Source: an uncultured virus (IMG/VR IMGVR_UViG_3300032167_000055)
Lineage: Duplodnaviria > Heunggongvirae > Uroviricota > Caudoviricetes
Strand: one strand, 5' to 3'
DNA length: 64,000 nt
IMG/VR virus record: IMGVR_UViG_3300032167_000055
Shown: positions 10,107 to 58,900 of the stretch, piece by piece
Position numbering within the stretch: the stretch's first letter is position 1
Layout of the letters: the number at the start of each line of letters is the position of its first letter
Made by a program: the position numbers and the translations under genes
Notes under the pieces: generated by a model
The model's input: the letters and a program-made list of their open reading frames with translations, nothing else
Told to the model about the DNA's origin: nothing
The model's database searches: none

Positions 10107-10694
10107 TTAAGCCGTATTTGTTAAAACAACTGATTGAACACCTATACCACCATTTACAAAATAATATTGATTTGAAGATCTATTATATAAATTTACTCTG
10201 GCTTTAATAGATGATAAATTTGACGTTGCCAATGTTAATTCTGGTTGGTAAATAGTACCGGCTTTAGAAGCATATGTGAATGTTACCAATGTTGTCCACG
10301 TCGATCCACCATTAGTACTATATTCAAGTGTTGCATCTCCATAGTTTGAATAAATACAAGCCCATAATTTAACTTTAGCATATGTGAAATTTTTAATATT
10401 ACTTGTAAAAGTCATAATGTCTTTTGTTGCTGAATATGATCCTCCAGAATTACGTGCTGTTTCACCGTTATTTGTATCATTTGATGCAATATAAGTTGTA
10501 TTATTTATAGAAACGGCAGTTCTACTAAAATAACAATTGTATGTTTGTTCAAATGACGCAGTAAATGCTGTTAAAGTTTGTGGTACCTCCCATATAGTAG
10601 TACCATTACATACAACTTTAGTTATATTAGTACCATTTACTTTAATACTACCTTCTGTAGTAGGTATAGTAGTTCCATTCATAACTATAGACAT
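10107..10694 (-). CDS. Putative tail-fibre tip adhesin (second gene of cassette 1)
   Basis: N-terminus MSIVMNGTTIPTTEGSIKVNGTNITKV shared with 55925, 57178 and 62625 ORFs; divergent beta-rich C-terminus; GGAGGT RBS. Confidence 0.75.
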   Translation of the reverse strand: MSIVMNGTTIPTTEGSIKVNGTNITKVVCNGTTIWEVPQTLTAFTASFEQTYNCYFSRTAVSINNTTYIASNDTNNGETARNSGGSYSATKDIMTFTSNIKNFTYAKVKLWACIYSNYGDATLEYSTNGGSTWTTLVTFTYASKAGTIYQPELTLATSNLSSIKARVNLYNRSSNQYYFVNGGIGVQSVVLTNTA

Positions 10695-10707: not shown

Positions 10708-11175
10708 CTAAGTGGTAATAGTTAATACTGTACCAGATAAAGATACTGTGGGAATAGTACCAGTTTTACTAGGAAGGGTTAGAGTAATATTAGACGTTGT
10801 ATTATTACCAGTTTGAATTTGTGTATATCCGGAAGATGTACCATACATACGAATTAAACCACGTCCATTACCAGCTGTACCCGATGCAGTTCCATTACCT
10901 AAATCTAAACGCCCGGTACCAACTCTACTAGTCGTTCCTGTCTCATAAGATGTTAAAAAAGCATAAGTATGTGTGTCTGAATTAATAGCTGAAAATGTTC
11001 TTGATATTACTCCAGACCAATATGAACCCGTACCACCCAAAATATATTCATCAGATATCGAAGGATATATGTCACCGGAAATAGTACCACCACTTAATGG
11101 TAAATAACTATGTGTATGACTACTATTAGCTTTACCGTTTACAGTAGTAGTTAGAGTTGTAATATTACTATTTAG
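10708..11175 (-). other. Silent tail-fibre C-terminal cassette 1 (no start codon)
   Basis: Frame opens at CTA AAT AGT AAT right after an in-frame TAG: LNSNITTLTT...SYLPLSGG...GNGTASGTAGN...SLSGTVLTITT; resembles the C-terminal part of 44937-46817. Confidence 0.85.
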
Positions 11176-11244
11176 CTAAATAAAGAATCTGTAAGTCCCT
11201 AGAAATATCGAGACTTACAGAAATTTTACTTAACTAAATTCCGT
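11165..11244 (-). repeat. 80-bp hairpin element, copy 1
   Basis: ACGGAATTTAGTTAAGTA-AAATTTCTGTAAGTCTCGATATTTCTAGGGACTTACAGATTCTTTATTTAG-CTAAATAGTAA; eight near-identical copies in the window. Confidence 0.95.
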
Positions 11245-11397
11245 CACCCTTACCATATTATCATCGAATTATAGACCTTTCGACAACTTTATGTAATACA
11301 ACTCATAACAAAAAAGATATACCCTTACGCTTTTACACGTAAGGGTAATCCAGCCAGTTAACCAAGGGTCTAATTTGGTTACTTTATTGTTATTCAT

Positions 11398-14300
11398 TTA
11401 CCATGGAAATGATCCTCCAGAATCACTGGAACCACCAAGACCATTCATATCATCGAAAAATCCCATATCATATCCACCATCATCTTCTTCAAACGTAGTG
11501 TATTTATTATCAGAATCAAGACCTTCTGGTATATAGTTAAGTGAACTATTAACCAATCTTGATGTTTCTGCTTGAGATCTTTCTATAGCGTTTCGTAATA
11601 TAGCCTCATAATCTAATGCTTTCATGGCTTCTCTTTCTTCCATGATTGCTTGAGCAACATCTGTAGGTAAAACTTTATTAAGCTCGGATTCGGTTTTCTC
11701 ATAGATGCCTTGATTACGAGGTTTTTCTTCTCTTTCACCAGGATAATAACCAAATATCTGTAAGTTATTACCATGATATAAAACATACATTGCGATTAAG
11801 TAAGACATTACAGAGTCATCGTGAACATATTTTTCGTTAATCTATACATCTCTGTATAGGTCAGACTATATCTTCATCTTATATTCTGTTACCAAATATA
11901 AGATGCCTCCAATTTCGGATTTCTCCTACTCTACTCGCTTCTTCACTATAGTATTTCTCTATAGTTATGCTTTCGATAGTCGTTGAACCTTACTTATTAT
12001 TTATAATAATAAGTCTTGGCTGCTGATTGTCTCTATTCATCAGATTGTCACACTTTACTGTACTGATGACCTAACGAGAGTTCCCAGCAATTAAAGAGGT
12101 TTAACCAGACCTCCACTATTCTATTCAAATTCTACAAATTTTTTGCCTTTTTCAAACTTTGATTTTAAATGTTTGACATTACTACGAATTTTTTCGTCAT
12201 ATTCCCATCCCATTTCATTTATAACCTCTCGTACTGAAAATCCTTGTTTAAAAAGATTTTCTATTTTAACGAGTTCATTATATGAAAAAATTGCAGAAGC
12301 TTTTTTAGTCTTTTTAAATTTATAGTTTTTACTAAGTTCTTTCCAAGTTTCTCTTTTACGAATACGTAATACAAAATCATACCCTAAATTATAATCATTA
12401 GATATTTTTTTAGGTGATATCCCTTTTGATAATAATTCACAAACCAATGTAGCCTCTTCTATTGTATGAGTTGTTAAATTACATTTTTCAGATGAAACAC
12501 TTGTTGGTTTCTTTAAACCAGTTCTAAAAGCATGGTAATTATTATACGAATATGTACACCAAACAAGATTAGAAATGTCATTATTTAATTTATCACCATC
12601 TTCATGATTTATAACTGGAAGATTTTCTGGATTAGGAATAAATCCTTTTCCAACTAATCTATGAATTAATTGTGTTTTGTATTCACCTGCTTTACCTAAC
12701 TGAAGATTTACGACTTTATATCCTGTATCTTTTGATATATATCCTTTAAGTTCTTTTTCTGTAAATATATTAAATATTCGACTATCCTCAGTTATTAAAT
12801 ATTTAGTTTGAATTTTATATATTTCATCATTATATTTAATATCAATAGTGATATTTTTCCCAATTATTCCATTTGATAAAGTTATAAGTTTTTTAAATTC
12901 AATTCCTTCTCTATTATCTTCTATTTCTTTTATTATTGGCAAAATAAATGCACCTCAATTCATTAATAATTAATGATATGTTGATGCATTATAAATGTAG
13001 AATTCATAGCGATTTTCGAGCCTGGACCAGCTGCAATCTTTCCTGATGATGTACGTACTAATCGAGATATATCTGTAATAACGTTCTCTGCAATAAAATC
13101 ATCTTTATTTTCAGAAATACGTCTAGCCAGAATAGCAAACATTGCTTCTCTAGAATGACCTTCTGTGTATACACCATAGAAAGATTTTTGTGCTGCTTGT
13201 TTTTTAAGCATTGACTCTATTGTCTCATATTCTTTTTTGTTTTCTTCAGTAAGATCTTTTGCTCTATCATAATATAATCTAGATGCAATTCTTGACTGAA
13301 GTAAATGGTCGATAATACCATCACCTACACTATTTCGTTCTACACAAACGATAGCTTTAGGTACATGGCGTGTTACTAATTCAATAATAATCTGTTCATA
13401 CAACGTTTCACCAACATAAGAACAAGCAAATTCAAATGCAGGTCTAGTTGTATATGGATTAATACCAGTAATAGCATTATTATCCTTATTTGTACCTGTT
13501 GAACAGTCAACACCGACAATGTAAGGAATAGAAGGATCTAATTCTTCATAAATCATAAACTGGTAGTAATCTTTTACAAATAAAACATCGATTGGTTTAT
13601 GCATATTCTCGACGATATACTCAATATCTTCCTGAGGATAAGGAGAAAGTGATGAACCATGTAATCTCTGAAGTAGGATTTCTCGACGAACAACAAGTGC
13701 ATCACCGATCATATTACTCATCTTAGATAACCATTCTTCATCCAAACCAATCTGATAATACTGGAACTCAATATAAATAATGCGGTTAGATTCACCAGCT
13801 TTAGCAAATTCTTTCATTTCATCTTTAGTCATATCGTATAAACGCTCTGACCACTTAACGGTCTTATCAAGAATTATTTGAGCTGAAATACCAGCATTAC
13901 TATCAAGATCTCCTGGGGTACCATATTTTGTTAAAAATATTAGACTATATCTTCAATATTAATTCTGTTACCAAATTAATATTGCCTCCTATTTCGGATT
14001 TCTCCTACTCTACTCGCTTCTTCACTATAGTATTTCTCTATAGTTATGCTTTCGATAGTCGTTGAACGTTATATAATCGTAAAGTTAAAATTTTCAAACA
14101 TATAATATTTTAGTGTAAATAATAAAAACAGTCCGGTTCATAAGGAGTTATTATTTACCCTAATCTTGTATAGTGTAATATAAAAGGGATTACACACTGT
14201 ATCAACACGAACCGGTATACAAGAATCGCAGGCCTAGGGGCGTAACGTCTAGGCTAACCACCATACGGCAGTATTGGTTGGGACGTGGTGATTATGAGGC

Positions 14301-15425: not shown

Positions 15426-15531
15426 GTAATGGATTACCTCCTTTCATTAAAATAAAGTCCTTTCAACGAAAAATTAAACTTTTCATAGATATATTATTAT
15501 AGTGACAAATTAATATAGGGAGGTAACGCTC

Positions 15532-15873
15532 ATGGAAAAACTAAATAAAGAAAAATCCAAAGCTCCTTCAATAGATGAACGAAGGAAAAGAAGCTACAAG
15601 CTAAAAGTTTCATTATCTCATGCATATGTAAATTTATGTGATAAATTAAATCCGACAAATAGTAAGTTTTATATGCATTGTCAAGATATTATCGACCGGG
15701 ATGAAACTATTGAACTCGGTTGGAAAGACAAAGAGATGATAAATTACGGACTAAACGGTTCTGTGATTCGTTCTATATCGGAAGATGAAAATGAGATATT
15801 AGAAGATTTCAATGAAATATTCTCTGAGAGAATGGATGAATTACTTGGTATTAAACCATGTAGAAGAGGTTAA
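15532..15873 (+). CDS. Hypothetical protein
   Basis: 113-aa ORF, GGAGGT RBS, upstream TATATTAT motif. Confidence 0.65.
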   Translation: MEKLNKEKSKAPSIDERRKRSYKLKVSLSHAYVNLCDKLNPTNSKFYMHCQDIIDRDETIELGWKDKEMINYGLNGSVIRSISEDENEILEDFNEIFSERMDELLGIKPCRRG

Positions 15874-16085
15874 CCGTAAAGTCGGAATTTATAAACATAT
15901 AATATTTATGTGAAATAAAGGAAATGATGATAATAAAAATCGTCTATCCTTATAAAAACTTCATAGCGCTATAGCACATATTCATAGTGATCTATAGGCA
16001 GACACAACTAAATAGCGCTCACAATAAAGTGAGGCAATTAAATTAATTTTATGGTGGAGGCGAAAGCCAAGAGCCGGAGGTTTAT
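15872..16085 (+). promoter_or_regulatory. Conserved promoter plus 5' leader, copy A
   Basis: Blocks AACCGTAAAGTC, AAACATATAATATTT, CATAGCGCTATAGCA, TGATCTATAGGCA, AACTAAATA and ATGGTGGAGG...CCAAGAGCCGGAGGT are shared with 29263-29420. Confidence 0.7.
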
Positions 16086-21348: not shown

Positions 21349-21428
21349 ACGGAATTTAGTTAAGTAAAATTTCTGTAAGTCTCGATATTTCTCGAGACTT
21401 ACAGATTTCTTATTTAGCTAAATAGTAA
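21349..21428 (+). repeat. 80-bp hairpin element, copy 2 (opposite orientation)
   Basis: ACGGAATTTAGTTAAGTAAAATTTCTGTAAGTCTCGATATTTCTCGAGACTTACAGATTTCTTATTTAGCTAAATAGTAA. Confidence 0.95.
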
Positions 21429-21702
21429 CGCAGAAATAAATTATATTCAAACAGGTAGAATAATAAATAGTGTTGTTGCATCAAAAACTCGTACAACTTT
21501 TGATATAGAATTTGATACAGAATATAGAGTTGTACCTAAAGTATTTGCAACATTTATGTCAAATTCAGAAGATTATAATTATGGAAATCTTAATATTTGT
21601 ATAGGAAATATTTATAAAACTGGATTTGAACTTCATGTACACAATACAAATGATGGTGATTTAGAACCAGGTGTATTATGGATTGCAGTAGGTAAGATGT
21701 AA
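21418..21702 (+). other. Silent tail-fibre cassette 2 (H-type lectin/gp53-like domain)
   Basis: LNSNAEINYIQTG...FDTEYRVVPKVF...KTGF...VLWIAVGKM*; no start codon at its 5' end; not in the ORF track. Confidence 0.8.
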
Positions 21703-28566: not shown

Positions 28567-29166
28567 TTAAATGAAAAACTCATTTACATATAATGGGATA
28601 CTGACTGAAATTGTTTGACGAGGATATAGATATACTGCTCCGCCAGTTGTAATGGTTAAATTAGCTGTATATATTTTTCCGTCAGATGTAGTTGAAATAC
28701 ATATTTCTTTTTTAAATTCACGTGAAGGTAAATAATTACTATTAGTAATGGTTGTAAGATGATAGGATGTTTTTGCTATTAAATCAGCACTTGGGGTAGA
28801 ATTAAAAAATATATTTTTTATTTTACCGCTTTTTGATACAGTAACTTGAATATATGACGATGTAAAACTATCTACAACAGGATCAAATGATTCTTGAAAT
28901 GCTAGTGTTTTTAGTATATATCCATTTTCATGAATAGTCGATCTATTCCATAAATATACTTTTCCGGTATTTGCTATATCTGCAAATAAAATAGATCCTA
29001 CATCACCTGATGTTCGAGAAATACCGACATACATAGAATTACTATCACCTAAATAACAAAATCCTGATTTCACTGAACTAAATTGTGTATGCATTGTATA
29101 TGCTAAATCATTAACATTTCCATTAGATCCAAACGTCCATGTAGGAGGGTAATTCTTACTATTTAG
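28567..29166 (-). other. Silent tail-fibre cassette 3
   Basis: Frame opens LNSKNYPPTWTFG... directly at the element core and continues into track ORF 28567-29094. Confidence 0.8.
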
Positions 29167-29235
29167 CTAAATAAAGAATCTGTAAGTCCCGAGAAATATC
29201 GAGACTTACAGAAATTTTACTTAACTAAATTCCGT
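29156..29235 (-). repeat. 80-bp hairpin element, copy 3
   Basis: Near-identical to the other copies. Confidence 0.95.
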
Positions 29236-29262: not shown

Positions 29263-29420
29263 AACCGTAAAGTCAGCATTTTCAAACATATAATATTTTT
29301 GTGAATAAAAAATAAATTACATAGCGCTATAGCATGAAACGTAATGATCTATAGGCAAATATAACTAAATATAAAATTAAATATGGTGGAGGATAAAATA
29401 TCCAAGAGCCGGAGGTACTT
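29263..29420 (+). promoter_or_regulatory. Conserved promoter plus 5' leader, copy B
   Basis: Shares ordered sequence blocks with 15872-16085. Confidence 0.7.
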
Positions 29421-39613: not shown

Positions 39614-39982
39614 TTATTTTATACGTACTAATGTAACGCGCCAATTAAATGCACGTGCCTCACTTACAGAATCATTATGAAATAAATAAATTGTAAATAT
39701 GCCGTTAGTTATATTTACTATAGATACATGCTGAATTGTATTTCTTCCTGTCTGATATGCATACATAAATGTATTATTGGTATTGATGCCATTAGAATTT
39801 ATTTGTACGTTTGTATTTTGTCCAACCCATGCTTCAACTGTGATAATTGCGCAGTAAATACCATTAGGTATGTCATTTACATTTGTACTTGTACTTCCAG
39901 TTCCACCACCTTCACTTCCAACACATGTCATTTGTCCATATGATGTAAATATATCTCCAATAACAGATGCGTTACTATTTAG
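39614..39982 (-). other. Silent tail-fibre cassette 4
   Basis: LNSNASVIGDIFTSYGQMTCVG...IPNGIY...VTLVRIK*; frame opens at the element core. Confidence 0.8.
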
Positions 39983-40051
39983 CTAAATAAAGAATCTGTA
40001 AGTCCCGAGAAATATCGAGACTTACAGAAATTTTACTTAACTAAATTCCGT
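39972..40051 (-). repeat. 80-bp hairpin element, copy 4
   Basis: Near-identical to the other copies. Confidence 0.95.
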
Positions 40052-40098: not shown

Positions 40099-41241
40099 TT
40101 ACTCAACCATATCAAGAAGAATATCTCTTTCTTCTTTGGTAATGTCACCTGTATGACAAGACTCATAAATTTCAAGTTTTAATGAATTAACTGACATTGA
40201 AGATTCAATAACAGGTGATACATTTTTACTTGTATTCATCTTGTTTTTTGCATCCAGAAGTTTTTGCTTTGCTTCATTAATTTTATCAATATCACTTTTT
40301 GTTTCGGATTTTACTTCTTTTAAACGTGATATTTCATCTTTTATAGATGGAATATTATTATTAGTATCCGTGGTAGAGGAATTATTTTTCTTATTAAATT
40401 TAGATTTGATTTTATCAATCACACCTTCCTGAACTAAAGCCAATAATTCAGTTTTTTCTTCGTCAGTAATATCTCCTGAACGATGAGATTCAAAAATAGA
40501 TAACTTTATTTCATCTGCAGACTCTAGTAATTTTTCATTACTATTGATAAAATCATCTATTGATGATATACACTTATCTATTTCTTCAATAGATTTGTCT
40601 ACACAAGAAATTAATCTTTCTGTAGCTTCAGGAGTAGCTGTTGCATACTTTCTTGCAAGACTTTTCAATTCCTTGTGATATGTCTTAAGATTTGAAAATT
40701 CCGCTTTTAAAGTTTTCTTACCATCCTTAATACGAGAAATGCATTCCATAGCATCATCACTTGTTTTCTTCCATTCAGCAGCCTTCTTAGGATCAAAATC
40801 AGGATTAGCCTCAGTTCTATATCTATTAACTATGGTTTCATCATATTTATAGAAACCATCATAAACCTGTTTAGTTTTAGCACCAAATAAATCCGCAAGT
40901 CTATCCGCGTCAGTAGATAATTTTGCATATTTCCATATATCAGAATTGAGATTTTTCTTAAGGGATTTGATAGTATCTTTAGATTTTTTAATTTTCTCAT
41001 CAATGTCTTTAAGTTCAGAATGTGACTTTATGACATCTTTAGCTTTTTTGTCGCGAATAAAAGCTGCAATTCCAGCAGATACTGCACCTATAGCAGTAAT
41101 AACACCACCAACTACAAAAGCTTTTTTATTATCAAGAACAACGTCTTCAATTGATTTTTCTTCTGCTAAAAATAATGAATCATCTTCTGTAATATAACCA
41201 GCTGATTCTAAAGCCAAGTATTTCAATTCTTGAAATTCCAT
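40099..41241 (-). CDS. Putative head protein with two IYES-GDIT motifs
   Basis: 'IKLSIFESHRSGDITDEEKTELL' and 'LKLEIYESCHTGDITKEERDILL'. Confidence 0.7.
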   Translation of the reverse strand: MEFQELKYLALESAGYITEDDSLFLAEEKSIEDVVLDNKKAFVVGGVITAIGAVSAGIAAFIRDKKAKDVIKSHSELKDIDEKIKKSKDTIKSLKKNLNSDIWKYAKLSTDADRLADLFGAKTKQVYDGFYKYDETIVNRYRTEANPDFDPKKAAEWKKTSDDAMECISRIKDGKKTLKAEFSNLKTYHKELKSLARKYATATPEATERLISCVDKSIEEIDKCISSIDDFINSNEKLLESADEIKLSIFESHRSGDITDEEKTELLALVQEGVIDKIKSKFNKKNNSSTTDTNNNIPSIKDEISRLKEVKSETKSDIDKINEAKQKLLDAKNKMNTSKNVSPVIESSMSVNSLKLEIYESCHTGDITKEERDILLDMVE

Positions 41242-41411: not shown

Positions 41412-42209
41412 ATGGCAACGAAAATGAGAAATAGAAGAAAAATTCATTGCCAGTTTTGTGATACTTATTTTTTAGACCCTGATGCATATACAATTCATTT
41501 AGAAACCGAACACGAAGATTTTCTTCCTGTTGATTTCTCAGGGTGGAGATATTATTACTATCAAAAGACTGGAAAACTTAAAGGTAGTTGTGTTATGTGT
41601 AAAGAAGAAACCGATTGGAATGAAACTACACATAAATACAATAGATTTTGTAATGATCCTCGTTGTAAGGAGAAATATAAAGAAATATTTAAAGAAAGAA
41701 TGATTGGCAAGTATGGGAAAGTTACTTTACTCAACGATCCTGAACACCAAAAGAAAATGCTTGCAAATAGAAAGATTTCCGGTATATATCCGTGGAGTGA
41801 TGATCCAAGAATTAAAATTCCTTATACGGGGAGTTATGAAAAAGCGTTTTTGGAATTTCTTGATTTGGATCTTCATTTTAATCCTAGGGATATTATTTCT
41901 CCGTCTCCTCATACGTATTATTATGAGTATAACGGAGAAAAGCATTTTTATATCCCAGATTTTTTTATTCCTTCATTAAATCTTGAAGTTGAAATTAAAG
42001 ATGGTGGTAGTAACCCTAACACCCATCATAAGATTCAGGATGTCGATAAGGTTAAAGAAAAACTTAAAGATGCTGTTATGAAATCAAATAAAAATACGTT
42101 TAATTACGTTAAGATTGAAGATAAGAATCATGTAAAGTTTCTTAACTATTTATTAGTTGCAAAACAGAAATTTTTAAATGATGAAGTTGAAAAAATCTTC
42201 ATGCCTTAG
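41412..42209 (+). CDS. Zinc-finger plus PD-(D/E)XK (TnsA/head-completion-like) nuclease
   Basis: C2H2 'CQFC...HLETEH', 'CVMC...CNDPRC', 'GSYEKAFL', 'HFYIPDF...EVEIK'. Confidence 0.7.
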   Translation: MATKMRNRRKIHCQFCDTYFLDPDAYTIHLETEHEDFLPVDFSGWRYYYYQKTGKLKGSCVMCKEETDWNETTHKYNRFCNDPRCKEKYKEIFKERMIGKYGKVTLLNDPEHQKKMLANRKISGIYPWSDDPRIKIPYTGSYEKAFLEFLDLDLHFNPRDIISPSPHTYYYEYNGEKHFYIPDFFIPSLNLEVEIKDGGSNPNTHHKIQDVDKVKEKLKDAVMKSNKNTFNYVKIEDKNHVKFLNYLLVAKQKFLNDEVEKIFMP

Positions 42210-44936: not shown

Positions 44937-46817
44937 TTATGAGACAATGTCAATATAAGTATATTCAATCCACCATTTTGTTGTAGTTGAATACTCAGTA
45001 CCATTCAAATAGGCATATGCTAAAGATATATTAAAACTTTGATCTATATCCCAATATACAGCTCCACCATTAGAATCAGAAACCCCCATATTTTGAAAAT
45101 ATCCTGCTCTTATTCTTGAAACGTCAGATTTCCTTGGTATTTCCGTTGATACTACAATAGTAGTACTTCCATTTATCTGGGCAAATACTTGCATAGAAAG
45201 TATAACTCCACCAACACCAATCAACCCAGCTATTTCATTTGTACTAACTTTTCCAGTCTTAGTACTACCAACAACATGTTTTATCGTGTTGTCACTCACT
45301 AATACTCCAGCTTCTCCAGGTAATTTTAAAGTATAATTATCTCTTCTATTAACTGTTGGTATAATATCAGCATAACCGCCCCACTTATTATAAAGACGCA
45401 ATCTACCAGTAGAATTTCCAGCTGTTCCTGACGAAGTAGCATTACCAACCATTAGATATGCTATTCCTTCTGCAGATGTTGTACCTACATTAGAAACTGC
45501 AAAACTTCCGCAATTAGATGATGTATTTGTACCATCATATATATACATGGTTTTAACAAATGAATTTGTCCATACTCTTGTTGTCGAACCTAATGAATAT
45601 GATACATTAGCACTAGGTGTTACATTTCTACTTGTTAATGTACCAGTTAATGTTCCACCTGATAAAGGTAAATAACTACTCATATTACTATTTAGTGTAT
45701 CAATCTGATTTTGCAACAAATAGCCCTGGTTTGCTGTAAGCGCCTTATTGGTTACTCCGTTAGCACTTGCAGAAGCACAACTATCTATCAACCAACCAGA
45801 AAGTGTACCAACTTTTGCAGCAGTTCCGGTATAGTTTGTACCGTTAATGTAGTTAGAAGTTGAACTTCCTAAATAACATGTACCGGTAAGTAAAGAGCTG
45901 GAAGTAAGTCTTCCTGCAGTTGTATCAAGGTAAACACCAGTATCAAATACCTGAGTACCAGTATTTGTTGTTGCAGAAGTAGTACCTGTAATATAAGCTT
46001 TAGCTGTAGTATTCAAGGTATTTGTAACTTTTGTATCAGAGTTAGCATCACTTGTCAATGTAAGAGTAACGTTTTTAATTGCTGTTACACGACCATATGC
46101 ATCTACTGTTACATAAGGCACAGTGAATGATCCTGAATCTGCTACAGTTGCATCTGCAGAAGATCCATATGAACCTGCTGTTGCGCCAGATGTAGCAAGT
46201 CTTTCAGCTGCTAATGTACCACTTTTAACATTACTTGCATTTAAGTTTGTTAATGCAGAACCATTACCAGAGAATGATGTTGCAACTAACTGACCTGATG
46301 TTGTACTTACATAAACACCAGTATCAAAATATTCAGCAGAAGGCATTCCTGCTGCATTATTAGGAGTACCAAGTAAGTAGAACTTAGTGGTATTCTTATT
46401 TTCAACATATGCAGGATTTACACCTGCAACTACGAGGTAATTAGTACCATCGTAAACGAACTCAACAGAAGCGCCAGCACGAATAACGTTAGCCTTTAAA
46501 GCTGCACCTTCGTAATGAATTGCCTTTGCACCTGTACTATTTACGTTCAATGTAGCACTTGCTACAGTAATAGCATTTGTAAATTTAACGGTAACATGAG
46601 CACCTGCCTTAAGAACAAAACCTGTTGCAGAAGCTACTTTTGCAGCTGTTGCAGCGGCTGTAGAACAAGTACCGTAGAACATTACCTTTCCTTCAATTGT
46701 AACGCCGGATGTCGAACTTGTGTGGACATCGGCGAGTGTATTCTTTGGATATAATATATCCTGATTACCGCTTGAATCAATGCGGGTCATCTCAATATGT
46801 TTTCTTGTAGTCGCCAT
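44937..46817 (-). CDS. Complete tail fibre / receptor-binding protein (putative expression locus)
   Basis: 626 aa, Thr/Ser/Gly-rich; 'ILYPKNT', 'YGTCSTAAATAAKV', 'ALTANQGYLLQNQIDTLNSN'; AGGAGG RBS and late promoter motif. Confidence 0.88.
   Translation of the reverse strand: MATTRKHIEMTRIDSSGNQDILYPKNTLADVHTSSTSGVTIEGKVMFYGTCSTAAATAAKVASATGFVLKAGAHVTVKFTNAITVASATLNVNSTGAKAIHYEGAALKANVIRAGASVEFVYDGTNYLVVAGVNPAYVENKNTTKFYLLGTPNNAAGMPSAEYFDTGVYVSTTSGQLVATSFSGNGSALTNLNASNVKSGTLAAERLATSGATAGSYGSSADATVADSGSFTVPYVTVDAYGRVTAIKNVTLTLTSDANSDTKVTNTLNTTAKAYITGTTSATTNTGTQVFDTGVYLDTTAGRLTSSSLLTGTCYLGSSTSNYINGTNYTGTAAKVGTLSGWLIDSCASASANGVTNKALTANQGYLLQNQIDTLNSNMSSYLPLSGGTLTGTLTSRNVTPSANVSYSLGSTTRVWTNSFVKTMYIYDGTNTSSNCGSFAVSNVGTTSAEGIAYLMVGNATSSGTAGNSTGRLRLYNKWGGYADIIPTVNRRDNYTLKLPGEAGVLVSDNTIKHVVGSTKTGKVSTNEIAGLIGVGGVILSMQVFAQINGSTTIVVSTEIPRKSDVSRIRAGYFQNMGVSDSNGGAVYWDIDQSFNISLAYAYLNGTEYSTTTKWWIEYTYIDIVS
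45685..45695 (-). repeat. 11-bp core CTAAATAGTAA inside the complete fibre gene
   Basis: Identical to the last 11 bp of the 80-bp element, same reading frame (L375-N-S-N). Confidence 0.85.
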
Positions 46818-46894
46818 ATCTCGAGCGCCTCCTTTTCTATTATTCTTTCATGAAAAAATAATTGAGACCCATAGATTTCTCTATGGTAATTACT

Positions 46895-46906
46895 TAGTAG
46901 AATGTT
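46895..46906 (-). promoter_or_regulatory. Late promoter-like motif AACA-N6-TA
   Basis: AACA-TTCTAC-TA; the same spacing occurs upstream of many structural genes (starts at 3072, 9976, 18424, 20668, 34683, 48197, 51304, 58181, 60895); matches the AR9 late consensus. Confidence 0.7.
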
Positions 46907-47009
46907 TTTATATTAGAAAGCTGTGTAGATGTGTAAAAAAATCTCTGAAATCCTTATATTTTCGATGATATATTATTATCATGAATATTCTAAGGAAGGA
47001 GGTTTTAAC

Positions 47010-47180
47010 ATGAGTTATATTGATAACTTGAGAAAGTTATACAACGAAATGAAACTAGCAAACGGTTTTGATACCGATGCTAGTTTCATGACAGCTTGGC
47101 AGTCTGATCCAAACAGATATGCCAACATTTTCTCAGTTAGAATGGCTTTGATTCAGGCATTGTCTGATCAGTTGTTCTAA
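47010..47180 (+). CDS. 56-aa hypothetical protein divergent from the fibre gene
   Basis: ATG after AGGAGG; upstream TATATTAT; downstream terminator hairpin. Confidence 0.65.
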   Translation: MSYIDNLRKLYNEMKLANGFDTDASFMTAWQSDPNRYANIFSVRMALIQALSDQLF

Positions 47181-47328
47181 CTAGAAAACAAGAGGTCAAA
47201 ATGCTCATACAAGCCAATCTTGGAATATTCAAGTAAGGGTAGCTGTAACTACCCTTACTTTTTTTGTTATTTTATCGATTAAATATAATTTTTTTTAAGT
47301 TACTTAACTTTTTGGGTTTTGTTTAGAA

Positions 47329-47346
47329 TACTTAACTAAATTCCGT
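47329..47346 (-). repeat. Isolated 18-bp left arm of the 80-bp element
   Basis: ACGGAATTTAGTTAAGTA exact match, same orientation as the fibre gene, separated from the 11-bp core by 1633 bp. Confidence 0.85.
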
Positions 47347-51399: not shown

Positions 51400-51687
51400 T
51401 TATACTGAATTTAACTCAAATAAATATATTACACAACTGCACTGTTGAGATGATCCGTATAAATTATATAATGTAACTGTTACTGAAGTTGCCGATGTAT
51501 TAGATATAGTAACTGAACATAAAAAAGTTGAAGAAATAAATGCATGTGGACTTTTTGTATAATTATATGAAGACAAATCTAGGGTGATTATTTCATAAGC
51601 GTTTACCGCAATAGGATTTGTACTTTTAACTGAAAATGATCTAAAATTTCTAAAAACAATTCCCGATTTATCCACCTTACTATTTAG
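51400..51687 (-). other. Silent tail-fibre cassette 5
   Basis: LNSKVDKSGIVF...YTKSPHAFIS...SVTVTLYN...; frame opens at the element core. Confidence 0.8.
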
Positions 51688-51756
51688 CTAAATAAAGAAT
51701 CTGTAAGTCCCGAGAAATATCGAGACTTACAGAAATTTTACTTAACTAAATTCCGT
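51677..51756 (-). repeat. 80-bp hairpin element, copy 5
   Basis: Near-identical to the other copies. Confidence 0.95.
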
Positions 51757-54971: not shown

Positions 54972-55014
54972 AAAATAATCTCCTTTTAAGATTTTATGGG
55001 ACTGTCACTATAAT

Positions 55015-55129
55015 GAAAAATGAAAGTGAGATAGGATACAAAAATGTATCCTATCTCGAAAGGTACTTTGTGTTCGATTTTGATTCTTTAAAAAGACCAA
55101 ATTAGTATTTTTATATGGAATTATCCATT
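55015..55129 (-). ncRNA. Candidate late small RNA B, or attenuating leader of the helicase gene
   Basis: AACA-GATTTG-TA promoter motif, 5' AATGGATAATTCCATAT like candidate A, 3' hairpin GAGATAGGATACA/TGTATCCTATCTC plus U-rich tail. Confidence 0.4.
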
Positions 55130-55153
55130 ACAAATCTGTTTATCATTTATTAA

Positions 55154-55756
55154 TTATTTATACATAATGAAATATGATCTCATATTTGTATTTGTTAATC
55201 CTAACCAATAAGGAGATTTTATGATTACTGATGTTGAAGTTTTTTCATATACATCTGAAGCACTAACAAATTTTCTATTAGTACCATTACTTGTATGCCA
55301 GTTTGACACTGAATAAGTTCCATCTGACATTAAGAAACAAGCTGTTCCTACGGCACCACTCTTAGCTTCAACAATATATCCTAGTAATTGATTAAAATCA
55401 GATGGTGAAATATATGATGTTACATCAGTAGTCCAAGGTTTATATATAACAAACTTAGCTTCAATTTCCGCTTGTATCCATTTACCATCATGTAAACTTT
55501 TAAAAGGGGTTACTGTATCAGCACCGCTTGGTATGTATCCCCAATTTCCTTCCGGATCTTGTCCAAATGAAATATTAGTTAAACTATTATGAGTATGACT
55601 CTCAAATGAGAACCCACCTAAGTCATACCATCCATCTATTGTACATTTTAACTTTGAACCAGTCCAACCAATATTAACCGTATTAGAGCTTTGATCTACA
55701 CCGCCTCCTTGTCTAACAGGAACAAATCCTAGTGAATTTTGCTTGTTACTATTTAG
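55154..55756 (-). other. Silent tail-fibre cassette 6
   Basis: 200 sense codons with no start at the 5' end: LNSNKQNSLGFVPVRQGGG...VNIGWTGSKL...GYIPSGADTVTPFK...; phage fibre-type motifs; not in the ORF track. Confidence 0.85.
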
Positions 55757-55825
55757 CTAAATAAAGAATCTGTAAGTCTCGAGAAATATCGAGACTTACA
55801 GAAAACTTACTTAACTAAATTCCGT
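55746..55825 (-). repeat. 80-bp hairpin element, copy 6
   Basis: Near-identical; GTAAGTTTTC variant. Confidence 0.95.
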
Positions 55826-55924
55826 CCCCCCTGTCACCACTCTTCACAAAGTCAATATATCATATCTATAAATCAATCGCAAGAGATATGATTTTACTAT
55901 ATAACTAACCTATACATTCATATG

Positions 55925-56539
55925 TTAAGGTTTTATAACAACACTCGTTAATGTTAATTTACCATAACCAGTACCATCAAAATATCCTTCAGTGTCATAT
56001 CGGATTCTCAGTTTATATGTGCCTGATAATGATGGTAATGTAAATGTTTTATTAACAGCTGTAGATTGAAGTACTCCTCTACCATCAGCACTGCCACTTA
56101 TACTTGCAAGACTCATAACAGTAGTTGTTGCTCCTGTTGATGTATTGTATAATTCTACTGCCATCTTATTAACACCATAATGGTTACCATTCCAATATAC
56201 AGTACCAGTTATAGTTAATCTTTGTCCTGATGGAGTAAAGGTATTTGTTGAAAGTAAGTACGCATATCCATAACCATTATATCCACCACCAGCATCAATT
56301 TGAATAGTGATACTATTACCAGATAAAACTATAGGATTAGAAGGACGGTCATAATCAATCCAACCATCAGTATAACCACTTGATTGAAGAGTGTATGACG
56401 TAATATTAATGTCAGTAATCTTTTCCCATACTGTAGTAGTTGTAGAACCTTTTACAACATTTACTTTTGTTACATTAGTATTACCAACTTTAATCGTTCC
56501 TGATGAAGGTATAGTGGTTCCATTTACAATAATAGACAT
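55925..56539 (-). CDS. Putative tail-fibre tip adhesin (second gene of cassette 7)
   Basis: MSIIVNGTTIP... shared N-terminus; GGAGGT RBS. Confidence 0.75.
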   Translation of the reverse strand: MSIIVNGTTIPSSGTIKVGNTNVTKVNVVKGSTTTTVWEKITDINITSYTLQSSGYTDGWIDYDRPSNPIVLSGNSITIQIDAGGGYNGYGYAYLLSTNTFTPSGQRLTITGTVYWNGNHYGVNKMAVELYNTSTGATTTVMSLASISGSADGRGVLQSTAVNKTFTLPSLSGTYKLRIRYDTEGYFDGTGYGKLTLTSVVIKP

Positions 56540-56550
56540 ATTATACCTCC

Positions 56551-57072
56551 CTAAATTGTAATAGTAAGTGTTGTACCGGATAATGACGCTCTACAAAGTG
56601 TAAAATCTGTAGTATCTACTCTACATACAATACTGGATCCATTCCATCCTAAATACATTATATTTGAATAAGATGGATGCCTTCTGACCAAGTTTCCATT
56701 AGATTCTACTCCAGTCATTGTTGCATAATTTAGAGATGACAGATATGTTATATCTACAAGTTGTCTCCATGTAAATATTTCATGACCAGCTGAAATAACT
56801 CTATAATGAATACCATTATCATTAACCATTGGAAATGCTACTTCAGTATAGTATCCATCTCCATTTGCATGATTCATTCGTATTTTATGAAACCATGTAT
56901 TTGCAACAGGTGTTGAATTCTTCTTTGGACCTGACGTTGTTCCATCTCCGGTCGTATTCATATATTCTAATCCAGATTTACCATATACTGGAGCATTAGA
57001 ACCTGAATGTAATAGATATGCTAATCCTACAGCAGTTTCTCCAGAAATAACTTTATTTACGTTACTATTTAG
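56551..57072 (-). other. Silent tail-fibre cassette 7
   Basis: LNSNVNKVISG...SLSGTTLTITI*; frame opens at the element core. Confidence 0.85.
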
Positions 57073-57141
57073 CTAAATAAAGAATCTGTAAGTCTCGAGA
57101 AATATCGAGACTTACAGAAAACTTACTTAACTAAATTCCGT
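57062..57141 (-). repeat. 80-bp hairpin element, copy 7
   Basis: Near-identical; abuts the AGGTTAGTTATA end motif of cassette 8. Confidence 0.95.
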
Positions 57142-57177
57142 TATAACTAACCTAGAAATATAAAATATCTTTGATTT

Positions 57178-57663
57178 TTATGTGAAAGTACATGTCAAAG
57201 ATGTCGTTATAGTATGCGTAGATCCTATATCTCCACCAGATACTCCTATAGTAACGGAAGATTTTCCAGAAATATTTATTTCTAAAGTTTTTGTATATGT
57301 AGAACCTTGAGATGTTCCATCCCATTGTGTTCGTTTGTATAAAGAATAAACAGTTCCATCAACAACAACATTAGCATCTACTCCGTTACCATCCCAGCTA
57401 TTCCATGAAGCAGTTTTTACAGAAGCACTTATAGTTAATTTAGTATGACCACTAAGTGATACTGTATCTAACGTAGAACTATAAGTTCTGTATTCTTGAT
57501 CATCACTTGAATTATCCGTATATGAATATGTTTTAGTTATTGGTGTTGCTGATGATTTCCATACACTAGTTCCATTACATTTAACTTCTGTTATTTGCAC
57601 ACCATTAACTACAATTTTACCCTTTGATGTAGGTATAGTGGTTCCATTTACAATAATAGACAT
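57178..57663 (-). CDS. Putative tail-fibre tip adhesin (second gene of cassette 8)
   Basis: MSIIVNGTTIP... shared N-terminus; GGAGGT RBS. Confidence 0.75.
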   Translation of the reverse strand: MSIIVNGTTIPTSKGKIVVNGVQITEVKCNGTSVWKSSATPITKTYSYTDNSSDDQEYRTYSSTLDTVSLSGHTKLTISASVKTASWNSWDGNGVDANVVVDGTVYSLYKRTQWDGTSQGSTYTKTLEINISGKSSVTIGVSGGDIGSTHTITTSLTCTFT

Positions 57664-57674
57664 ATTATACCTCC

Positions 57675-58010
57675 CTAAATTGTAATAGTAAGAGTAGTTC
57701 CAGATAATGTCATATGACCTATATTCCTCATGTTTTTATATCCAAAATTACCATCACTTTTCTTATATCTGAATAGTAAATCATAACCATTATTTGCATC
57801 AGTATAAATATATGGTCCTAAACCACTAGCTGAGCCTAAATGGATACTTGCAAAAAATGGAGAAGAACCTGTGGCAGGGCGTGATTGTGAATCCCATATA
57901 GCGTTATTGGATGAATTATATAATACAAGATTTCCATCACTTTGTAATATAAATGTATATCCGTTTTGTGCAGATTTAAAACAAGCACCACTAGGTCCAT
58001 TACTATTTAG
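57675..58010 (-). other. Silent tail-fibre cassette 8 with a bulb-type lectin motif
   Basis: LNSNGPSG...YTFILQSDGNLVLYNSSNNAIWDS...TLSGTTLTITI*; QxDxNxVxY motif; not in the ORF track. Confidence 0.85.
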
Positions 58011-58079
58011 CTAAATAAAGAATCTGTAAGTCCCGAGAAATATCGAGACTTACAGAAAACTTACTTAACTAAATTCCGT
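58000..58079 (-). repeat. 80-bp hairpin element, copy 8
   Basis: Near-identical to the other copies. Confidence 0.95.
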
Positions 58080-58180
58080 GACGACCACCCTACTCTCCAA
58101 AAATATAGAAAAATCTTATACCTATCTAGATTTTCTTAATTTTTCAACATTTTTGTAATGTATAGAAAGGAAGTGAAAAA

Positions 58181-58900
58181 ATGAACTTATCTTCTCTTAT
58201 TACAAGAATAAAATTAGAACTCGGTATATATGCTATAGCATTACCTATTGAAGATATAGATGGAACTATTAGTAAAGTAATTAAAGATATAACTTTAAGA
58301 ACTTATTCCCAGTATTTTCCACAATATGATATTATAAGAAAACCTAGTGCTGAAATAGAAAAGGCTTCTAGAAATCTTGAATATACTGATTTGATTTTAG
58401 AGGTTCCTACAGGTCAAGAAATAGTTTTTGTTGCTGATGTATATTATGATGCATCTGATGTCAGTGGCATTGGTTATTATGGTGCAGGTATGCCTATATA
58501 CACACCAAATATGTTAGCAGATGTTTTAACTACTAATGTAGGAGCTGATTTAACAAATATGATGTTTCCTAAATTAACATGGAGATTTGATACTCCTAAT
58601 AGGCTTAGAGTATGGCATTTATATGGAGGAAGCATATTTATTAAATATGCTAAACTTCATGATCAATCACTTGCATCTATTCCTGTATCTCAAGAAGAAA
58701 CTTTCTTTAAAATTGCATTAATTGATGTAAAGAAAGTATTATATAGTGTACTTAAACACTACAACGAACTTGAAACTGCTCACGGACGTATCAGTTTAAA
58801 AATTGATGACTGGGCTGAAGCAGATAGTAAACGTGAAGAATTGCTAAGAGAGTGGGATGATAATTTCCACTTAGAGCAAAAGACCATTTATTGGGCATAA
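58181..58900 (+). CDS. Putative virion structural (possibly neck) protein
   Basis: 239-aa ORF, upstream AACA-TTTTTG-TA; 'LITRIKLELG' N-terminus reminiscent of neck proteins. Confidence 0.55.
   Translation: MNLSSLITRIKLELGIYAIALPIEDIDGTISKVIKDITLRTYSQYFPQYDIIRKPSAEIEKASRNLEYTDLILEVPTGQEIVFVADVYYDASDVSGIGYYGAGMPIYTPNMLADVLTTNVGADLTNMMFPKLTWRFDTPNRLRVWHLYGGSIFIKYAKLHDQSLASIPVSQEETFFKIALIDVKKVLYSVLKHYNELETAHGRISLKIDDWAEADSKREELLREWDDNFHLEQKTIYWA

Follow-up and report, generated by a model that had tools for sequence, protein, structure and literature searches.

The locus raises the question of what an 80-nt hairpin element does in front of reading frames that have no start codon, and whether it is recognised as a folded single strand of DNA or RNA, as the initial annotation had proposed, or is a site at which double-stranded DNA is exchanged. 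The element was examined in the whole 64,000-nt stretch of phage DNA (the window), in the jumbo-phage genome record G000 (278,849 bp), in a sister phage (G001), in a relative (G002) and in natural variants assembled from metagenomes (G003, G004 and G005).

The 80-bp element and its cassettes

The element annotated at 11165–11244 was recovered at exactly that position on the minus strand, and consists of a left arm, an inner inverted repeat and a right arm ending in ...TTATTTAG/CTAAATAGTAA (slashes within sequences mark the fusion point). The inner-arm 12-mer (≤1 mismatch) matched the window 15 times (0.14 expected; 15 reached in 0 of 100 shuffles), and these matches resolve into eight elements, seven on the minus strand and a sole plus-strand copy (copy 2, 21349–21428). 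The remaining minus-strand copies lie at 29156–29235 (copy 3, whose interior differs by 4 bases between the window and G000), 39972–40051 (copy 4), 51677–51756 (copy 5), 55746–55825 (copy 6, the last in a tandem array of three), 57062–57141 (copy 7) and 58000–58079 (copy 8). G000 carries the element in full 17 times, once in part and once as a left arm alone, at sites dispersed from 19 to 172 kb. The pairing described in the initial annotation was confirmed: the inner pair is T-A in copies 2, 6 and 7 (CGAGAC) and T.G in copies 1, 3, 4, 5 and 8 (CGGGAC, except for AGGGAC in copy 1), and pairing of the outer arms, ATTTAGTTAAGTAA with TTATTTAGCTAAAT, includes two G.T wobbles. Mismatches are fixed across all copies of both G000 and G001. 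The palindrome TATTTAG/CTAAATA occurs in all eight window copies, with an open frame beginning directly after its TAG.

Two further features of the elements have no explanation in the two-site reading developed below: a G/T-rich, Shine-Dalgarno-like tract immediately 5' of nearly all of them, and a conserved left-arm word (..TTT AGT TAA or ..TTT TGT TAA). In Rfam (E up to 1) none of the eight window copies matched a family, and a group I intron elsewhere in the window was the sole real match. The element was unmatched by blastn against 50,697 phage records, and no cultured relative carrying it was found. A gapped pattern for diverged elements in metagenomes gave 18 loci, which were judged chance matches because they had no comparable hairpin (-4 to -20 kcal/mol).

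A start-less ORF of 94–457 aa follows 16 of the 17 full G000 copies in the frame TAG/CTA AAT AGT AA., the exception being the copy at G000 position 96095, where a 1-base insertion is followed by only 2 codons. In the window, cassette 1 (10708–11175, minus strand; 155 aa) reads LNSNITT...HTHSYLPLSGG and resembles the C-terminal part of a tail fibre, cassette 2 (21418–21702, plus strand; 94 aa) encodes an H-type lectin domain (PF09458, 29.5 bits, cut-off 24), and the first ~50 aa of cassette 6 (55154–55756, minus strand; 200 aa) match positions ~590–700 of longer PHROG families. Cassette 3 (28567–29166; 199 aa) is the one found joined to the fibre N-terminus in a natural variant, and the others, like it on the minus strand, are cassettes 4 (39614–39982; 122 aa), 5 (51400–51687; 95 aa), 7 (56551–57072; 173 aa) and 8 (57675–58010; 111 aa). 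Cassette matches are to lectin domains or to the C-terminal portions of tail-fibre families, and the cassettes begin with LNS(N/K), the internal junction motif of the complete fibre gene. They are dispersed in both orientations with intergenic DNA upstream, and no frame entering an element from upstream in G000 is longer than 60 codons.

The sister phage, with an RNA polymerase beta subunit 79% identical to that of G000, carries 35 analogous elements, all of them followed by a start-less ORF (90–276 aa) in the frame TAA CAA AAC TGC AAY, and one complete fibre gene with the junction ...QIDE-LNCN... and left-arm-only copies upstream of it. G002 has two complete fibre genes and neither the high-copy hairpin repeat nor cassette homologues.

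Read-through of the stop codons by recoding or a suppressor tRNA was rejected, the frame upstream of the cassette also containing TAA; the 0 tRNA genes found by ARAGORN, run over the window and over 14 more loci that take in the rest of the genome, likewise count against a suppressor tRNA. Translational bypass could in principle make each cassette a protein of its own, if a short upstream frame ended in ..TTT AGT TAA and the peptidyl-tRNA hopped 66 nt to the matching AGT. Codons are indeed matched 66 nt apart with TAA after the first (AGT..AGT, Ser/Ser, in 16/17 G000 copies; TGT..TGC, Cys/Cys, in 34/35 G001 copies), the Shine-Dalgarno-like G-rich tract lies just upstream, and an in-frame ATG, GTG or TTG precedes 14 of 19 G000 copies compared to 6 and 0 in the other frames. 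These features recall T4 gene 60, in which, according to two preprints (bioRxiv 10.1101/2022.08.31.505936, 10.1101/2024.12.09.627546), matched codons surround a non-coding hairpin gap and a stop comes right after the first codon; here, however, the elements lack a consistent reading frame on their upstream side, and the fibre junction motif LN(S/C)N, with its S or C, already accounts for the 'landing' codon. An in-frame start is found at 17 of the 35 G001 copies, much as in the control frames (15 and 16), the products would be without the 374-aa N-terminal part of the fibre, and fusions are directly observed in DNA, all of which makes bypass very improbable.

The fibre gene and its natural variants

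The complete tail-fibre gene (44937–46817, minus strand; 626 aa) comprises an N-terminal part of 374 aa, LNSN and the current C-terminal part, 'c0', reading ...QIDT-LNSN-MSSYLPLSGG at codon 375. DNA identity between this gene and the cassettes starts exactly at the 11-mer CTAAATAGTAA, which has nine occurrences in the window, eight behind hairpins and one inside the fibre gene (45685–45695, minus strand), where it is preceded by TTGATACA and is crossover point R in G003, G004 and G005. Adjoining it is a 1,633-bp 'head' module (45696–47328, minus strand) that contains a small ORF on the opposite strand, the promoter region of the fibre gene and its N-terminal codons, and beyond the head lies a left arm only, ACGGAATTTAGTTAAGTA (47329–47346, minus strand), the left half of an occupied docking site and crossover site L. 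In the search for cultured relatives, the fibre N-terminus had one weak match, covering 23% of the query.

The variants G003, G004 and G005 are metagenome assemblies with flanks 99.99–100% identical to G000, and three otherwise identical genomes differ exactly at the LNS(N/K) junction. G005 joins G000 positions 127887–137342 to 153861–177427 over an 11-nt overlap, which places cassette 3 behind the head, with 16.5 kb missing. G004 follows G000 to position 135698, continues with 51 nt and resumes at 137332, a whole hairpin before c0 replacing the head module, which is absent from its 86.6-kb contig; the G003 contig begins exactly at 137332. The hairpin interior at the c0 site of G004 carries a private loop variant, ATATCTCT, present in G000 in only one of 17 copies, at the cassette-3 site (element copy 3), and in IMG/VR at three places, the cassette-3 site in two contigs and the c0 site in one. 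An exchange between c0 and cassette 3 would produce this distribution, and G005 would then be the deletion intermediate of that exchange. The junctions, three natural states of the site and a marked interior exchanged from one site to another are thereby seen in the assemblies, and since the natural variants differ exactly at the junction and the marked interior changes site, the element is a DNA recombination site. The 'fusion point' of the initial annotation is accordingly real, as a crossover point in DNA at which variants are rejoined exactly at CTAAATAGTAA.

The second product of such an exchange, the head at the cassette-3 site with the left flank of cassette 3 itself, was not present among the assembled variants. 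In near-identical contigs, the 28 orthologous loci were all collinear with their G000 counterparts, in a scan that was incapable of returning the marked interior. Contigs from four sequencing runs over 55000–58300 broke at the elements, with element bins at high depth, and the joints in these contigs are explicable by paralogous cassettes and other element copies.

Overall, the element is probably a docking site in its unoccupied state, at which site-specific DNA recombination switches the receptor-binding C-terminus of the tail fibre. It is best understood as a pair of inverted crossover sites placed back to back, in which L would be the left arm (...ATTTAG TTAAGTA...) and R the right arm (...TTATTTAG/CTAAAT AGTAA). 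An empty site would be palindromic and foldable because L and R lie back-to-back. The 1.6-kb head would occupy a single site at any time, taking the place of the ~58 bases that otherwise separate L from R, bringing the fibre promoter and the first 374 codons and joining them in frame to the cassette of that site at CTA AAT AGT AAY. Transfer of the head would take one reciprocal crossover between R sites and another between L sites, and the hairpin interior would travel the opposite way. Between sites in direct orientation the intermediate would be a deletion plus a circle, and as 13 of the 17 G000 sites stand in direct orientation relative to the fibre gene, at distances of up to 118 kb, single crossovers would delete DNA. 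Fixed differences that distinguish the overlap of L from that of R (positions 12/69 and 16/65) may prevent the two from recombining with each other, and unoccupied cassettes would be silenced by stops in all frames and, in this phage, by the terminator-like inner hairpin. The hairpin and head forms share only one side per crossover site (18 nt at L, 11 nt at R), such that a classical two-arm core site is not evident; judged by eye, the arms around TTAAGTA match weakly to a dif-like core (two ~11-bp inverted arms, 6–8 bp centre). The homology boundary at R lies 6 nt inside the stem in G000 and ~3 nt inside in G001.

Exchange of this kind could also be imagined to proceed with no dedicated recombinase, if the palindromes stalled replication or were cut as cruciforms and the ends were joined by microhomology template switching or annealing at 11–18 nt, the element itself being a terminator or insulator, or a MITE-like repeat. 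Such a route would suit the short identities at the junctions, the SbcC-like and RusA-like proteins encoded by the genome, and the inner hairpin with TTCTTTATTT, which is terminator-like on the sense strand only (one site, at copy 4, compared to 0.2 expected). It would also suit, as does exchange at the docking sites, the synteny between the two phages, scrambled into 25 aligned blocks, the ends of which fall within 1.6 kb of an element in 19 of 50 cases in G000 (20% of the genome being that close, P = 0.0025) and in 24 of 50 in G001 (26% of the genome, P = 0.0006). However, the junctions are precise and identical in three independent variants, the reciprocal relocation of the marked interior fits conservative exchange, the elements co-occur with a recombinase and 0 of 4 scanned G001 elements were terminator-like, and a mechanism of this type seems improbable.

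Strand-specific folding and the candidate enzyme

Both strands were folded with RNA and with DNA parameters, for three window copies and then for all 17 G000 copies. For the three window copies, RNA folding gave -31.5 to -36.0 kcal/mol on the sense strand (z -7.8 to -9.4) and -18.3 to -26.7 kcal/mol on the antisense, and DNA folding -13.4 to -17.7 and -10.7 to -16.0 kcal/mol, respectively. The sense strand was the more stable in 17/17 G000 copies with either set of parameters, so that the strand-specific folding first noted in the window extends to the whole genome, but it does not extend to the sister phage, where the sense strand was favoured in only 5/35 copies (RNA) and 3/35 (DNA). The G001 hairpins are weak (mean -17 kcal/mol for RNA, -10 for DNA), the central 22 nt are variable and pair inconsistently, the arm mismatch is a T/A transversion without a wobble, and the 14-bp fusion-point palindrome is absent. 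Compensatory changes were found in 0 of 20 predicted G001 pairs, a covariation check that is uninformative because the paired columns are invariant; those between G000 and G001 were left uncounted, being predicted equally by a hairpin and by two inverted protein-binding sites. A folded single-stranded DNA or RNA substrate, which the initial annotation had drawn from the bias, is thus possible but unsupported, since neither the sense bias nor the palindrome is conserved in G001. A homologue lacking the bias is the outcome that the initial annotation had itself named as refuting its proposal. Fixed differences between crossover sites L and R (TTAAGTA compared to CTAAATA) account equally well for the two outer 'wobbles'.

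The protein scan covered 275 ORFs of at least 70 aa (Pfam E up to 1e-5), a miss being possible because the ORFs came from a custom greedy caller. The one recombinase found in G000 is a tyrosine recombinase (PF00589, 5.5e-37) that passes the XerA-type NCBIfam model NF040815 (231.1 bits, cut-off 220), its best PDB matches being XerA-like 4a8e (9.4e-32), 5hxy and XerD 1a0p. Its gene (G000 64172–65194) lies ~7 kb from the nearest element. The G001 recombinase is 73% identical, and none was detected in G002 by tblastn. The enzyme responsible would on this pattern be the Xer-like tyrosine recombinase of the phage, a suggestion that comes from co-occurrence over n = 3 lineages; when the RNA polymerase beta subunit and the recombinase were used as queries, three lineages only were obtained (G000-like, G001-like and G002), and the test therefore stays at that number.

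This recombinase and the hairpin bear on an attC-like version of the same DNA switching, in which the element would be recognised only as a folded single strand or extruded cruciform and the mismatches would set the choice of strand, as in integron attC sites and in the CTX-phage attP hairpin used by XerCD. The only recombinase found does belong to the Xer/integron-integrase superfamily, its family being named 'tyrosine recombinase/integron integrase', and the strong hairpin in the three copies tested, the sense bias throughout G000 and the mismatches fixed in both phages would all be expected. The two crossover points also lie opposite each other in the stem, and crossover at G/CTAAAT leaves six stem bases on the cassette side in G000, an arrangement that may correspond to the attC R' box (G/TTRRRY); the stem base presumably resembles the attC R box too. 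The strand bias, however, fails in G001, along with consistent pairing of the central 22 nt and any compensatory change, and an inverted pair of duplex sites predicts identical symmetry. Nor does the enzyme reach the integron-integrase models (TIGR02249, 82.7 bits, cut-off 265; NF011946, 50.6, cut-off 435), with PDB IntI4 aligning only to its last 60 residues (269–328). The attC-like reading is consequently considered unlikely, if still the strongest of the alternatives to recombination between duplex L and R sites.

The HUH-like or RNA-templated chemistry also envisaged from the fold drew no support, with neither an HUH (Y1) transposase nor a reverse transcriptase, and equally no serine recombinase or RNA ligase, among the 275 ORFs scanned. 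Joining at the RNA level, in which a cassette transcribed with its hairpin leader would be trans-spliced or ligated to the 5' part of the fibre mRNA, might account for the dispersal of cassettes in both orientations behind intergenic DNA, for a G000 sense bias that is largest with RNA parameters, and for a group I intron elsewhere in the window. No evidence for it was obtained: it would have to operate without an Rfam match for any element (E up to 1), without an RNA ligase among the scanned ORFs and without the bias in G001, and the joined forms exist as DNA, leaving it the least probable of the readings weighed here.

Known switching systems and biological meaning

Recombination at paired L and R sites shares features with several known systems. 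In integrons (attC/attI with IntI), promoter-less cassettes lie next to imperfect palindromes and are expressed only at one acceptor site; each attC follows its ORF, and the cassette array sits beside attI and the promoter. Here too promoter-less cassettes lie beside imperfect palindromes, with one expressing acceptor site, a recombinase of the same superfamily and an apparently similar crossover a few bases inside the stem base, whereas the element is 5' of its cassette, the product is an in-frame protein fusion, the cassettes are dispersed, the recombinase is not of IntI type and strand-selective folding is not retained in the sister phage. Recombinase-mediated cassette exchange with heterospecific lox or FRT sites is an engineering method in which two non-cross-reacting sites flank a segment and a double reciprocal crossover swaps segments with unchanged flanks. 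The same logic would apply here, in an apparently natural rather than a laboratory design, if L and R are heterospecific as their sequences suggest.

Shufflons are represented by R64 PilV/Rci and by the Rin system of Bifidobacterium prophages (PMC6109161). They resemble the present system in having a tyrosine recombinase (here the putative agent of the switching), a constant N-terminal part with alternative C-terminal receptor-binding segments (here the head joins c0 in G000 and cassette 3 in G005, in both cases at CTAAATAGTAA), and a short repeat upstream of the variable segments that marks the crossover, an 11-bp repeat in Rin and an 11-nt word here. A shufflon is one clustered invertible locus beside its recombinase gene and works by inversion, compared to 17–35 cassettes over ~150 kb, direct orientation in 13/17 and observed variants that reflect exchange and deletion. 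Each cassette here has an 80-bp palindromic two-site element, and it is the constant part with its promoter that relocates. The serine-invertase switches Mu Gin, P1 Cin and p15B Min likewise vary host range by DNA rearrangements that swap the 3' end of a tail-fibre gene (PMC6109161, PMC9881135), but their single invertible segment offers 2 to 6 alternatives, whereas the sites here number 18 or 36 and are dispersed, and no serine recombinase was among the ORFs scanned.

The tail-fibre DNA switches of Mu, P1, p15B and Bifidobacterium Rin are local inversions with a handful of alternatives, and a limited search of the open-access literature found no description of dispersed hairpin-marked fibre cassettes. 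The present system is distinguished by a much larger library (17–35 cassettes), by the scattering of cassettes across the genome of a lytic jumbo phage, and by a constant gene half that appears to travel to the cassettes in a two-site exchange at palindromic docking sites. By moving the front half of the fibre gene between back halves, the phage probably alters the range of bacteria to which it can attach. Taken more broadly, and quite tentatively, the phages may possess a natural genome-wide cassette exchange, combining an Xer-like recombinase, heterospecific site pairs and a promoter-plus-N-terminus module with 18 docking sites here and 36 in the sister, which would provide one lytic nucleus-type jumbo phage with dozens of receptor-binding tips and reshuffle its gene order as a by-product; the palindromes may also need extrusion or folding. 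If confirmed, this would explain how one uncultured gut phage covers many hosts or receptor variants, would constitute a natural system of heterospecific recombination sites, and would mean that a host-range switch can drive large-scale rearrangement of phage genomes, and consensus assemblies of such phages would hide the population heterogeneity at their docking sites.

Element copies, cassettes and the complete fibre gene

The 80-bp palindromic element (copy 1, 11165–11244, minus strand, boundaries exact) occurs eight times in the window (seven copies on the minus strand, one on the plus strand), where its inner-arm 12-mer (≤1 mismatch) has 15 matches compared to 0.14 expected. The genome record of the same phage (G000; 278,849 bp, 32% G+C), of which the window is the minus strand of 119027–183026, carries 17 full copies. 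Behind 16 of these lies a start-less ORF of 94–457 aa, termed a cassette and numbered as its element, in the frame TAG|CTA AAT AGT AA.; the exception, at G000 96095, carries a one-base insertion and lacks an ORF. Stops occur in all three frames inside the element, and no upstream frame of >60 codons runs into one. All eight window cassettes matched either the C-terminal portion of tail-fibre families or lectin domains, including an H-type lectin (PF09458, above cut-off) and positions 215–294 of 296 of a PHROG tail fibre.

A six-frame search for LNS(N/K) inside long frames located one complete tail-fibre gene of 626 aa (44937–46817, minus strand; protein ...ANQGYLLQNQIDT-LNSN-MSSYLPLSGG...), with the junction sequence TTGATACA|CTAAATAGTAAT and a C-terminal part (c0) that is 30–45% identical to three cassettes. 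Cassette identity to this gene begins exactly at CTAAAT, the first base past the hairpin TAG, and the 11-mer CTAAATAGTAA occurs nine times in the window, eight times behind TTATTTAG and once in the fibre gene. Together, the exact start of identity, the distribution of the 11-mer and the likeness of c0 to the cassettes establish that the “fusion point” named in the initial annotation is a real boundary, where homology of one expressed gene to a collection of alternative 3′ ends begins.

Four further ORFs (10107–10694, 55925–56539, 57178–57663 and 62625–63527, all minus strand) have a common N-terminus, MSI..NGTTIPT.., and come after cassettes 1, 7 and 8, whose ends read ..LSGTTLTIT; one has an ALK/LTK glycine-rich domain (PF12810, 1.3e-23). 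These ORFs may encode distal fibre partners or assembly partners moving together with their cassette. A group I intron (RF00028, 82.2 bits, E 2.2e-19; 11842–12119, minus strand) lies close upstream of element copy 1 and directly adjoins an HNH endonuclease ORF (12121–12942, minus strand), and a 130-nt stretch of the intron is repeated with 91% identity at 13942–14071, perhaps a second intron, without an Rfam report. Two incomplete elements were also found, a left-arm-only copy (G000 135681–135698, window 47329–47346) and, outside the window, a left arm and inner hairpin with neither right arm nor cassette (G000 41459–41528, minus strand). The latter has an extended -10-like TGATATAAT before it and a terminator-like hairpin after it, and could be either a site in decay or a gene for a small RNA.

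Natural variants and a proposed two-site exchange

Across the element flanks, several IMG/VR contigs match this genome at 100% identity, and a search with 601 nt around the fibre junction recovered three, from metagenome assemblies, that break exactly at the junction. The first (G005, 33 kb) joins G000 127887–137342 to 153861–177427 through an 11-nt overlap, CTAAATAGTAA, so that the head, a 1,633-bp module of promoter and N-terminus (45696–47328), forms an in-frame fusion with cassette 3 and the contig lacks 16.5 kb. The second (G004, 86.6 kb) follows G000 to 135698, then has 51 nt, then resumes at 137332; it has a complete hairpin before c0, with c0’s own left flank, and does not contain the 1,633 bp of fibre promoter region and N-terminal codons. 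The third (G003, 107.7 kb) has 137332, where CTAAAT begins, as its first base. Judged from assembled contigs rather than reads, these joins are taken to be real molecules because the 11-nt or 18-nt identities at them are shorter than usual assembly words. The fusions exist as DNA, and nothing supports a joining of cassette to fibre message at the RNA level.

Two sets of sequence differences mark individual hairpin interiors. The interior at the c0 site of G004 has a private loop variant, ATATCTCT, present in only one of the 17 G000 copies, that at the cassette-3 site; a scan for it returned two contigs with the variant at the cassette-3 site and, as a third place, the c0 site of G004. Further, the window and G000 differ at four of 64,000 positions (29189, 29195, 29215 and 29216), all in the interior of copy 3, for which the window has the common variant, also found in IMG/VR contig L052. 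This difference is interpreted as a swapped interior.

The occupied site, in which the head is present, reads [flank]ACGGAATTTAGTTAAGTA, head module, CTAAATAGTAA[cassette], and the empty site has the same layout with 51 nt of hairpin interior replacing the 1,633-bp module. As the 7 nt TTAAGTA at the left junction are common to both forms, the left crossover could fall anywhere from ATTTAG| to TTAAGTA|; the right crossover appears to lie at or 3′ of G|CTAAAT. The two points are opposite each other in the folded stem. As duplex DNA the element can be read as a pair of similar ~40-bp sites with opposite orientations, L (..ATTTAG TTAAGTA AA..TCTGTAAGTCTCG) and, inverted, R (..ATTTAG CTAAATA AA..TCTGTAAGTCCCG). 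The fixed difference between them would block L-by-R events and with them any flipping of interiors or heads, and would permit L-by-L and R-by-R events. Engineered cassette exchange between heterospecific sites follows the same logic.

One pathway, R by R and then L by L, accounts for the variant contigs, the marked interior and the difference between window and G000. If the G000 arrangement is the start (head at c0, marked interior at cassette 3), an R-by-R crossover between the two sites would yield the G005 deletion and a circle. Reinsertion of the circle by an L-by-L crossover would then leave the marked interior at c0, the state seen in G004, and place the head at cassette 3. The latter is the predicted end product; the G004 contig ends before the cassette-3 site. 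Rearrangement driven by the repeats without an enzyme is possible, but is a poorer fit to such precise, reciprocal products than the two-site exchange.

Conservation and folding of the element in a sister phage

In the sister phage G001, whose 275,512-bp genome has terminal repeats and whose RNA polymerase beta subunit is 79% identical, BLAST detects no copy of the G000 element. The sister phage has 35 copies of an analogous ~85-nt palindrome, each with a G-rich tract before it and a start-less ORF of 90–276 aa after it, in the frame TAA CAA AAC TGC AAY. G001 has one complete fibre gene, of 475 aa, whose N-terminal part is 66% identical and whose junction reads ...NQIDE-LNCN-LNE...; an element and cassette lie 40 nt downstream of this gene and left-arm-only copies upstream. 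In both phages nearly every copy has, 10–20 nt on its 5′ side, a Shine-Dalgarno-like tract that is rich in G and T and variable in sequence (e.g., 11245–11262); the tract is retained at the occupied site.

Strand-specific folding, as initially proposed, holds for this phage but not for its sister. The listed pairs were recovered, with the inner stem pair T-A in copies 2, 6 and 7 and T·G in copies 1, 3, 4, 5 and 8, and two G·T wobbles in the outer arms, which are exactly the two differences between TTAAGTA and CTAAATA. For three window copies, RNA folding gave −31.5 to −36.0 kcal/mol for the sense strand and −18.3 to −26.7 for the antisense (DNA parameters: −13.4 to −17.7 and −10.7 to −16.0), stabilities that no shuffled sequence matched. 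The sense strand was more stable in 17/17 G000 copies and alone forms a terminator-like inner hairpin in this phage. In G001, however, the sense strand was more stable in only 5/35 (RNA) and 3/35 (DNA) copies, the hairpins were weak (mean, −17 [RNA] and −10 [DNA] kcal/mol) and the central 22 nt varied without consistent pairing. A covariation check there found compensatory changes in 0/20 predicted pairs, the paired columns being invariant, and the fixed arm difference (T in TTAAGTT, A in TTAAGTA) leaves the two bases mismatched on either strand, with no wobble. Likewise, the 14-bp palindrome TATTTAG|CTAAATA at the fusion point, present in 8/8 window copies with the open frame beginning after TAG, is absent from G001, and a terminator-like inner hairpin was found in 0/4 G001 elements scanned. 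Conserved in both phages are therefore two inverted arms, a small fixed arm difference, the position directly 5′ of the cassette and a G-rich flank. It is unlikely that a folded strand or cruciform is required, as in integron attC sites or the CTX-phage hairpin; the geometry resembles that of attC sites, but the phage recombinase does not reach integron-integrase models and the element is on the opposite side of its cassette.

The left arm contains a conserved word (11230–11244 in copy 1), ..GAA TTT AGT TAA in G000 and ..CAA TTT TGT TAA in G001, whose Ser or Cys codon matches the residue, S or C, in the fibre junction 66 nt 3′ of it. Translational bypass over the element into the cassette could be read from this spacing, since ..TTT AGT TAA is followed 66 nt on by AGT, the third codon of the cassette, and ..TTT TGT TAA in G001 by TGC at the same distance. 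The second codon is, however, simply the S or C of the fibre-junction motif, and an in-frame upstream start was no commoner in G001 (17/35) than in control frames (15 and 16); bypass is very unlikely. The codon match may be coincidence or a trace of how the sites arose.

Recombinase, gene order and relation to known switches

G000 encodes split multisubunit RNA polymerases, tubulin, anaerobic ribonucleotide reductase, gyrase and other replication proteins (Pfam scan of 275 ORFs ≥70 aa from a simple greedy caller, 89% of the genome covered). In its RNA polymerase beta subunit the phage shares ~31% identity with Listeria phage LPJP1 and Bacillus phages AR9 and PBS1, and the sequencing runs in which it occurs are gut or faecal metagenomes from animals. 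Outside the window, at G000 64172–65194, lies a tyrosine recombinase (PF00589 with a SAM-like N-terminal domain) that scores 231.1 bits against NF040815 (cut-off 220) and has XerA and XerD as best solved relatives. An orthologue is present in G001 (73% identical) and none was found in a third relative, G002 (tblastn best E 0.38; 249,613 bp, beta subunit 72% identical), which has two complete fibre genes in tandem, no high-copy hairpin repeat and no cassette homologues. The putative link between recombinase and element rests on this co-occurrence in three lineages.

A 54-nt repeat with the ending ..CATATAATATTTTAGTG has four copies (14075–14128, 15464–15517, 15872–15925 and 29263–29316) and probably represents a family of phage promoters; a comparable repeated motif is present in G002. 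Paralogous small proteins ending ..EERD(I/L)LL..(M/I)(I/V)(E) recur in all three phages, sometimes just upstream of an element (upstream of cassette 4, ~40100–40160; G000 ~92030; G002 33–44 kb and 125–135 kb).

Gene order between G000 and G001 is scrambled across the element-bearing half (25 aligned blocks ≥1.5 kb), compared to an element-free half that is collinear over 46 kb and 30 kb. Block ends lay ≤1.6 kb from an element in 19/50 cases in G000 (20% expected, P = 0.0025) and 24/50 in G001 (26% expected, P = 0.0006), and sequence to either side of individual G000 sites is separated by tens of kilobases in G001.

The Rin, Min, Gin and Cin tail-fibre switches, as far as two reports describe them, combine a constant 5′ part, alternative 3′ parts and a short repeat at the crossover (PMC6109161, PMC9881135), and Rin uses a tyrosine recombinase (PMC6109161). 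No account of the present arrangement turned up in limited searches of open-access text. The phage system resembles these switches and the shufflon in its constant 5′ part, alternative 3′ parts and short crossover repeat. Unlike theirs, its sites are unclustered and mostly in direct orientation, and its variants are one exchange and one deletion rather than local inversions, so that it falls outside those families as they are defined.
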